Source of the DNA: Escherichia phage T7
DNA length: 36,016 nucleotides
Sequence record: PV223880.1
Reading direction: 5' to 3' (one strand)
The position numbers were made by a program, and so were the translations under genes. Each line of letters opens with the position of its first letter. Positions within the stretch are counted from its first letter, which is position 1. The notes beneath the pieces are model-generated. The model worked only from the letters and a program-made list of their open reading frames with translations, was not told the DNA's origin and did not search any database. Below, in pieces: positions 1,321 through 1,619 of this stretch.

Positions 1321-1619
1321 AGGCACGCAGATTCAAACGTCGCAACCGCAAGGCACGTAAAGCACACAAAGCTAAGCGCGAAAGAATGCTTGCTGCGTGG
1401 CGATGGGCTGAACGTCAAGAACGGCGTAACCATGAGGTAGCTGTAGATGTACTAGGAAGAACCAATAACGCTATGCTCTGGGTCAACATGTTCTCTGGGG
1501 ACTTTAAGGCGCTTGAGGAACGAATCGCGCTGCACTGGCGTAATGCTGACCGGATGGCTATCGCTAATGGTCTTACGCTCAACATTGATAAGCAACTTGA
1601 CGCAATGTTAATGGGCTGA
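1259..1619 (+). pseudogene. 0.7: 3' remnant of gene 0.7 (protein kinase / host shut-off); kinase domain deleted
   Basis: Frame-0 reading ...[44 protein letters not shown]...LMG* is the gp0.7 C-terminus; no upstream start, stop codon at 1233-1235 in that frame; internal ATG at 1386. Confidence 0.8.

Follow-up and report, generated by a model that had tools for sequence, protein, structure and literature searches.

In wild-type T7, the shut-off (SO) domain of gp0.7 (PHROG 2828; PF27024, Phage_T7_kinase) forms the C-terminal end of the translated 359-aa kinase. A 2026 study delimited this domain as Gln243-Gly359 and reported a toxic, kinase-independent host-transcription shut-off activity together with some kinase-independent anti-defence role (PMC13645617). 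According to the same work, an extended basic helix of the domain is predicted to bind nucleic acid, and the isolated domain is insoluble unless refolded with DNA; DNA binding, the proposed basis of shut-off, was attributed to this positively charged helix by prediction and inference. Published assays of these properties used the full 243-359 domain. gp0.7 is deleterious in rich medium and frequently lost (PMC2680503). Adaptive deletions in T7 are documented to arise by recombination between the GAGGAAGTCG / AGGAAGTCGAGGA repeats of genes 0.3 and 0.7, a hotspot entered as "position 1,253; 1,489 bp; homology GAGGAAGTCG" with earlier reports cited (PMC8923235). The repeats are translated in one and the same frame (EEVEE) in the two genes, so that spontaneous deletions of 1,480 and 1,489 bp give in-frame Ocr-gp0.7C fusions; the strong 0.3 start then drives translation of the SO domain or its tail. 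For instance, the CiPGr-evolved T7 mutants MZ375235 and OL964750 carry the GAGGAAGTCG junction, annotated as a single 231-aa CDS, and the natural Yersinia phage YpP-Y encodes a 228-aa "protein 0.3" that represents an Ocr-SO fusion (L010, 374-1060). Literature searches for classical Studier deletion names (D111 and others) gave nothing.

Shorter tails of gp0.7 have been retained as well. Protein 0.3 of phiA1122 (P0009, 140 aa) consists of Ocr and 33 aa of the gp0.7 C-terminus, an 86-aa protein of YpP-R (P0008) joins gp0.7 residues 1-53 to 33 aa, and phage 13a possesses a 44-aa "gp0.7" (L012, 962-1096). Independent natural deletions in the T7 group have repeatedly preserved 29-119 C-terminal residues of gp0.7, fused in frame behind an upstream ORF, which may be Ocr, the N-terminal part of gp0.7 or a further small ORF. 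Same-frame microhomology (LEE/EEV repeats) explains these in-frame tails equally well as a function of the tail. Other T7-group genomes carry orphan or split gp0.7 remnants, that is, C-terminal pieces after deletions or frameshifts, as does the DNA studied here. Those remnants are spontaneous or perhaps assembly errors, and their expression is putative, whereas the remnant described below stems from a designed junction.

The DNA that we analyzed, referred to as the window, is the whole 36,016-nt stretch of record PV223880.1. Sequence comparison identified it as the published engineered "T7-B chassis" phage (mBio 2025, PMC12153263). Table S1 of this SMART genome-engineering paper assigns accession PV223880, and the T7-B chassis is described there as a 36.0-kb phage built from cloned segments without segment F2. 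A base-by-base comparison with NC_001604 showed that the bases to 1,258 and from 1259 on are wild-type T7, with a gap of 1,481 bp between them. Six more deletions follow downstream of this 0.3/0.7 deletion. All seven coincide with Table S2 of PMC12153263, and together they account for 3,921 bp (39,937 minus 36,016). Their wild-type coordinates, as given in Table S2, are:

0.4-0.7: wild-type 1,257-2,737
1.4: wild-type 7,609-7,764
1.7: wild-type 8,198-8,733
3.8: wild-type 11,268-11,558
4.3-4.7: wild-type 13,279-14,297
5.3: wild-type 16,484-16,821
7.7: wild-type 20,109-20,208

The three derivatives PV223881-3 are 100% identical to the window at the left end and the junction. The original prediction had correctly described a gp0.7 remnant on an early transcript and an activity residing in the C-terminal part of the protein; its engineered origin went unrecognised, and the proposed expressed functional fragment was not supported by the analyses reported here.

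Two observations concern the remainder of the chassis. The gp7.7 deletion (window 16288-16303) removed just 100 bp near the 3' end of gene 7.7, so that about 87 codons remain, a partial removal as designed (Table S2 of PMC12153263). Outside the deletion scars, about 20 point differences from NC_001604 were found, at window positions 4830, 7781, 11458, 15859, 18854, 20167-20425, 23114-23970, 25337, 27870, 31054-31337 and 33488. Examples obtained by simple codon translation are Y59H in gene 1.2, D197N in gene 5, R276S in gene 9, an adjacent double change at codon 55 of gene 14, and T118A/K211E/R212Q in gene 17. These differences presumably reflect the lab-strain background of the parental T7.

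At the 0.3/0.7 locus, the following junction was mapped:

1244..1258: deletion junction, wild-type 1256 joined to wild-type 2738, 1,481 bp removed (0.3'-0.4-0.5-0.6-0.7'; comparison with NC_001604)

The junction is positioned at window 1256/1257, within an imperfect direct repeat, AGGAAGTCGAGGA(A)GT, of which gene 0.3 has the copy GGAGGAAGTCGAGGAGT and gene 0.7 the copy AAGGAAGTCGAGGAAGTCG. The Ocr-gp0.7C fusions share this hotspot, the repeat (GAGGAAGTCG / AGGAAGTCGAGGA) and the right-hand DNA up to gene 1 with the window. They differ in deletion size (1,480 or 1,489 bp) and in that the frame is broken in the window. The T7-B junction reads GAGGAGTCG, while an in-frame 1,480-bp deletion would read GAGGAAGTCG; compared to the spontaneous GAGGAAGTCG, the engineered GAGG-AGTCG is 1 nt shorter at the junction and the deletion 1 nt longer. 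The same junction (GAGGA|GTCGCACG) was written into a cloning primer of PMC12153263: the construction primer pBAC-T7-S1-3-F contains ...GGAAGTCGAGGAGTCGCACGACAG... and reads ...CAGAAGACTTGCTCAATGAATACTTGGAGGAAGTCGAGGAGTCGCACGACAGAAAGAAAT. Because the junction is spelled out in this primer, the orphaning of the gp0.7 C-terminus represents a design outcome, neither an evolutionary event nor a sequencing error. Exact-match scans of IMG/VR found neither a junction of the 1,480/1,481 type nor one of the 1,489 type.

Being one base longer, the 1,481-bp deletion shifts gene 0.3 out of frame, so that it stops at 1318-1320, and leaves the gp0.7 frame without an initiator:

925..1320, + strand: truncated, frameshifted gene 0.3 (Ocr'), ending with the stop TAG at 1318-1320 (ORF list, comparison with wild-type Ocr)

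The 0.3' product comprises Ocr residues 1-111 followed by a 20-aa out-of-frame tail from gp0.7 DNA, and the Pfam ocr domain was recognized in residues 3-103 (E = 1.9e-64). The 0.3 frame does not run on into the gp0.7 frame; a deletion of 1,480 or 1,489 bp would be needed for such a fusion. Ocr' loses the acidic C-terminus of Ocr (YEEDEE) and gains a basic 20-aa tail (net +5).

Downstream of the junction, the window retains the entire SO-domain coding sequence in its wild-type form (gp0.7 codons 241-359, from 1260) and has lost the kinase part along with start codon and ribosome-binding site. Two segments can be distinguished:

1260..1385, + strand: gp0.7 codons 241-282, basic part of the shut-off helix (translation, charge count, start-codon scan, AF2)
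1386..1619, + strand: 77-aa ORF, gp0.7 Met283-Gly359, net charge 0, pI 6.7

The gp0.7 frame is open from 1236, the nearest upstream in-frame stop being TGA at 1233, yet the start-codon scan found no ATG, GTG or TTG in 1260..1385. ATG 1386 is the first of these codons in the retained frame. The ORF that begins there (ORF list: + strand, ATG start, ending in ...DAMLMG) matches gp0.7 residues 283-359 of NC_001604 with 100% identity, covers the last two thirds of the SO domain and matched profile positions 292-366 of PHROG 2828 (E = 2.2e-15). The ORF list and the mapping onto NC_001604 thus bear out that an orphaned C-terminal segment of gp0.7 with an in-frame ATG at 1386 is present, as had been read from the sequence; the segment is out of frame with 0.3'. 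The openness of the frame is inherited from gp0.7 and gives no statistical hint of a new gene. As an alternative start, the near-cognate ATT at 1275 was considered and rejected: the SD-like GAGGAG ends 17 nt upstream, beyond useful spacing.

We consider it probable, at roughly 85%, that 1386-1619 is an engineering scar that is untranslated or trace-translated and whose product would be expected to lack shut-off activity. The builders joined wild-type 1256 to 2738, copying the spontaneous deletion hotspot between the short 0.3/0.7 repeats. The 1,481-bp design sends gene 0.3 out of frame into 0.7 DNA, with a stop at 1320, and leaves the SO-domain coding sequence (1260-1619) without a start codon and without a ribosome-binding site. 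The 77-aa ORF is nothing but the part of the remnant downstream of its first methionine, Met283. According to this reading, the ORF would be transcribed within an untranslated 3' portion of the early 0.3' mRNA, extending up to the R1 RNase III hairpin, and its translation would amount to none or traces. We infer that the remnant lacks both translation and activity.

The transcription context comprises the following elements:

462-490, + strand: early promoter A1 (E. coli RNA polymerase), -35/-10 TTGACT/GATACT (consensus scan)
589-618, + strand: early promoter A2, TTGACA/TAAGAT (consensus scan)
714-742, + strand: early promoter A3, TTGACA/TACGAT (consensus scan)
1621..1667, + strand: stem-loop between the 0.7 stop and gene 1 (RNA fold)
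1690..4341, + strand: gene 1, T7 RNA polymerase, 883 aa, the next real gene (ORF list; annotation of PV223881 and NC_001604)

The promoter positions agree with the NC_001604 annotation, which places the A1/A2/A3 start sites at 498, 626 and 750. No terminator-like site was found on the + strand before gene 1; with A1-A3 intact, the remnant is thus transcribed early, and its proposed placement on the A1-A3 transcript was confirmed. The RNA fold of 1612-1692 had an energy of -22.7 kcal/mol (z = -2.1). We take the stem-loop to be the T7 R1 RNase III processing site (Dunn & Studier 1983), which would end the 0.3' mRNA. An Rfam scan of 800-1800 yielded no RNA family.

The quality of the putative start was assessed by three measures. 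Pairing with the anti-SD was scored as the best duplex of the 16S rRNA 3' end with positions -20..-3. At ATG 1386 this pairing reached -0.8 kcal/mol, weaker than at all 54 annotated T7 starts, which ranged from -3.9 to -13.4 kcal/mol (median -10.1), and 80% of the 728 ATG triplets in the window pair with the anti-SD as well or better. The upstream Shine-Dalgarno, which the original prediction had called weak, was therefore even understated in its weakness. Opening of the region -20..+10 was calculated to require 10.4 kcal/mol at ATG 1386 versus a median of 6.1 for real T7 starts, 98% of which are more open (for comparison, 5.2 kcal/mol for 0.3 and 2.8 kcal/mol for gene 1); the codon sits within a small predicted hairpin. 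Furthermore, the column of Met283 contained M in 18 of the 38 aligned gp0.7 homologues (about 35-100% identity in the Met283 region), mainly close relatives, and V, Q, H, K, N, L, I or R in the others; this alignment gave no sign of a conserved internal start. ATG 1386 thus fails all three tests of a functional start, namely SD complementarity, an accessible initiation region and a conserved start codon. Because of the weak anti-SD pairing, the structured site and the non-conserved Met283, expression from ATG 1386 is unlikely. A search of the literature for internal initiation or ribosome profiling in gene 0.7 found nothing.

Past the 0.3' stop, no canonical start codon occurs in any frame until ATG 1386, 65 nt further on. 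The leader upstream is A-rich; such leaders can support weak SD-independent initiation. Post-termination scanning reportedly occurs in bacteria (Adhin & van Duin 1990; Yamamoto et al. 2016), and trace re-initiation at ATG 1386 after the highly translated 0.3' ORF is conceivable.

What a product of this ORF would lack became apparent from the structure predicted for the SO domain. An AF2 model (39-sequence alignment, mean pLDDT 80.8) showed one continuous helix, 242-305, followed by three shorter helices, with Met283 in the middle of the long helix. Residues 241-282 contain 21 K/R in 42 aa (net +15, pI about 12) and hold 21 of the 31 K/R of the SO domain; all of these are absent from the 77-aa ORF. 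The complete SO domain (Gln243-Gly359) is not contained in one translated ORF, as the ORF starts at Met283. A 77-aa product would do without the basic helix to which DNA binding is ascribed and is therefore not expected to show shut-off activity; the loss of this feature would follow from the predicted structure and PMC13645617. The most conserved stretch of the SO domain in the 38-homologue alignment is formed by its last ~40 residues. A Foldseek search of the AF2 model against the PDB returned nothing (best E = 9.9), and the local Pfam copy held no model for the gp0.7 C-terminus, the sole match being a chance-level Peptidase_S49_N.

These data bear on two further claims. The location of the shut-off activity in the C-terminal part of gp0.7, separable from the kinase, agrees with the literature (Gln243-Gly359, PMC13645617). 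The idea that the 77-aa piece is expressed from ATG 1386 as a functional shut-off fragment is not supported, given the missing SD, the buried start and the unconserved Met283, as well as an ORF that starts mid-helix and omits residues 241-282 with their 21 of 31 K/R. The original prediction had named a shut-off determinant outside the 77-aa segment as evidence against itself, and this is nearly what was found: the basic helix, as mapped by prediction and inference, lies upstream.

Three other explanations were weighed against the scar. Initiation at ATG 1386, direct or by re-initiation, would generate a 9-kDa kinase-less gp0.7 fragment with some shut-off or other SO activity. An intact ORF on the early (A1-A3) transcript, whose start codon is the first one, 65 nt off, after the 0.3' stop, would allow for this, and the fragment would include the best conserved SO part, the last ~40 residues; moreover, natural phages retain the C-terminal 31-37 residues in frame after deletions, and a kinase-independent SO-domain role has been reported (PMC13645617). 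However, the start has no SD (-0.8 kcal/mol, worse than 80% of the window ATGs), is sequestered (10.4 kcal/mol, above 98% of real starts) and uses an unconserved Met283 (18/38), and the fragment would begin mid-helix without 21/31 basic residues, while even the complete SO domain is insoluble without DNA (PMC13645617). The burst sizes of T7-B (197) and of T7-D with its restored F2 segment (206; PMC12153263) are similar and, being weakly informative, neither favour nor exclude residual activity of the remnant. Taken as a whole, we regard such a fragment as improbable.

A fusion could also arise if a few 0.3' ribosomes slipped by -1 at A_AAG (1269-1272 or 1296-1299). Two such tetranucleotides are present where the 0.3' frame overlaps the open SO frame, and the SD-like GAGGAG (1252-1257) lies 11 nt upstream of the first one, a distance that resembles the spacing reported for the dnaX stimulator (Larsen et al. 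1994); as 0.3 is very highly translated, even ~1% slippage would yield protein. Nevertheless, a canonical X XXY YYZ heptamer is missing, with just A_AAG (1269, 1296) and G_GGC (1311) at hand, there is no significant downstream structure (fold 1273-1340, -16 kcal/mol, z = -0.09 vs shuffles), and because the junction is man-made, selection cannot have shaped a frameshift signal. An Ocr-SO fusion made in this way is highly improbable, and the slippage route is very unlikely to matter for expression. It is very improbable, too, that low-level re-initiation at Met283 or slippage at A_AAG delivers a kinase-less C-terminal product whose last ~40 residues, the piece retained in frame by phiA1122, YpP-R and 13a, are active separately from the kinase and the basic helix. 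The missing junction A might, finally, be an error of the sequence or the record, the real phage carrying the in-frame 1,480-bp deletion and expressing the SO domain as an Ocr fusion. Indeed, the reduced T7 genomes MZ375235/236/238 and OL964748-50 differ there solely by one A, but the 1-nt-shorter junction is spelled out in primer pBAC-T7-S1-3-F, the deletion size is stated as 1,481 bp (Table S2, PMC12153263), the three independently deposited derivatives PV223881-3 agree, and the reduced phages were NGS-checked according to the authors (PMC12153263). We consider such an error extremely improbable.

The ORF is a piece of gp0.7, a known protein, and of a known domain within it; the genome around it is a published engineered one, and the junction falls at a known deletion hotspot. 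Its biological weight is little, since the construction of a published synthetic phage has left a scar here, at a hotspot known for decades. For users of T7-B it matters that Ocr carries a foreign basic 20-aa tail and that a complete, start-less copy of a toxic DNA-binding domain remains; one indel of +1 or -2 at the junction could restore expression of the SO domain as an Ocr fusion. Activity of the small fragment, if there were any, would help to dissect the kinase-independent shut-off by gp0.7. In such remnants, gene callers will go on reporting ORFs of 71-77 aa as "protein kinase" or "shutoff".

Remnants of this kind are frequent among T7-group records and in metagenome contigs; the 53-86-aa "kinase"/"shutoff" ORFs that gene callers report there begin at the first available Met. 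Salmonella phage PSP2-22 has a kinase plus a 53-aa "host transcription shutoff" CDS, P0006 is a 74-aa ORF beginning at the Met283 equivalent, and the metagenome contigs L006-L009 contain orphan or split gp0.7 remnants. In metagenome contigs and PSP2-22, gp0.7 is split by frameshifts or internal deletions (L006 2760-3216; L007 2135-3216; L008 1119-2188; L011 583-1549), and the called C-terminal ORFs measure 53-74 aa; these splits could be real disruptions or assembly errors. In contig L008, the SO frame is open throughout, yet the ORF was called from the Met283 equivalent, same as in the window. The evolved T7 delta-holin F20 (MZ318363; L014, 573-929) has a left-end deletion of ~2.17 kb that places gene 1 at 1003 instead of 3171. 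Its retained DNA starts at or just before the SO-domain boundary and holds an unannotated SO remnant without any upstream ORF.

A search of the representative library revealed 10 relatives of the SO domain, all of them T7-group fragments but for two weak matches, P0014 (1,185 aa) and P0015. Since nearly all of these relatives are T7-group fragments, the library offers no independent family of stand-alone SO proteins. P0015 (122 aa; 35% identity, E = 8.8e-4) was the only distant stand-alone SO relative found in the library, and it combines its own basic N-terminal stretch with the conserved C-terminal motif AIQAGxxLxIDKLLDAQLKG.
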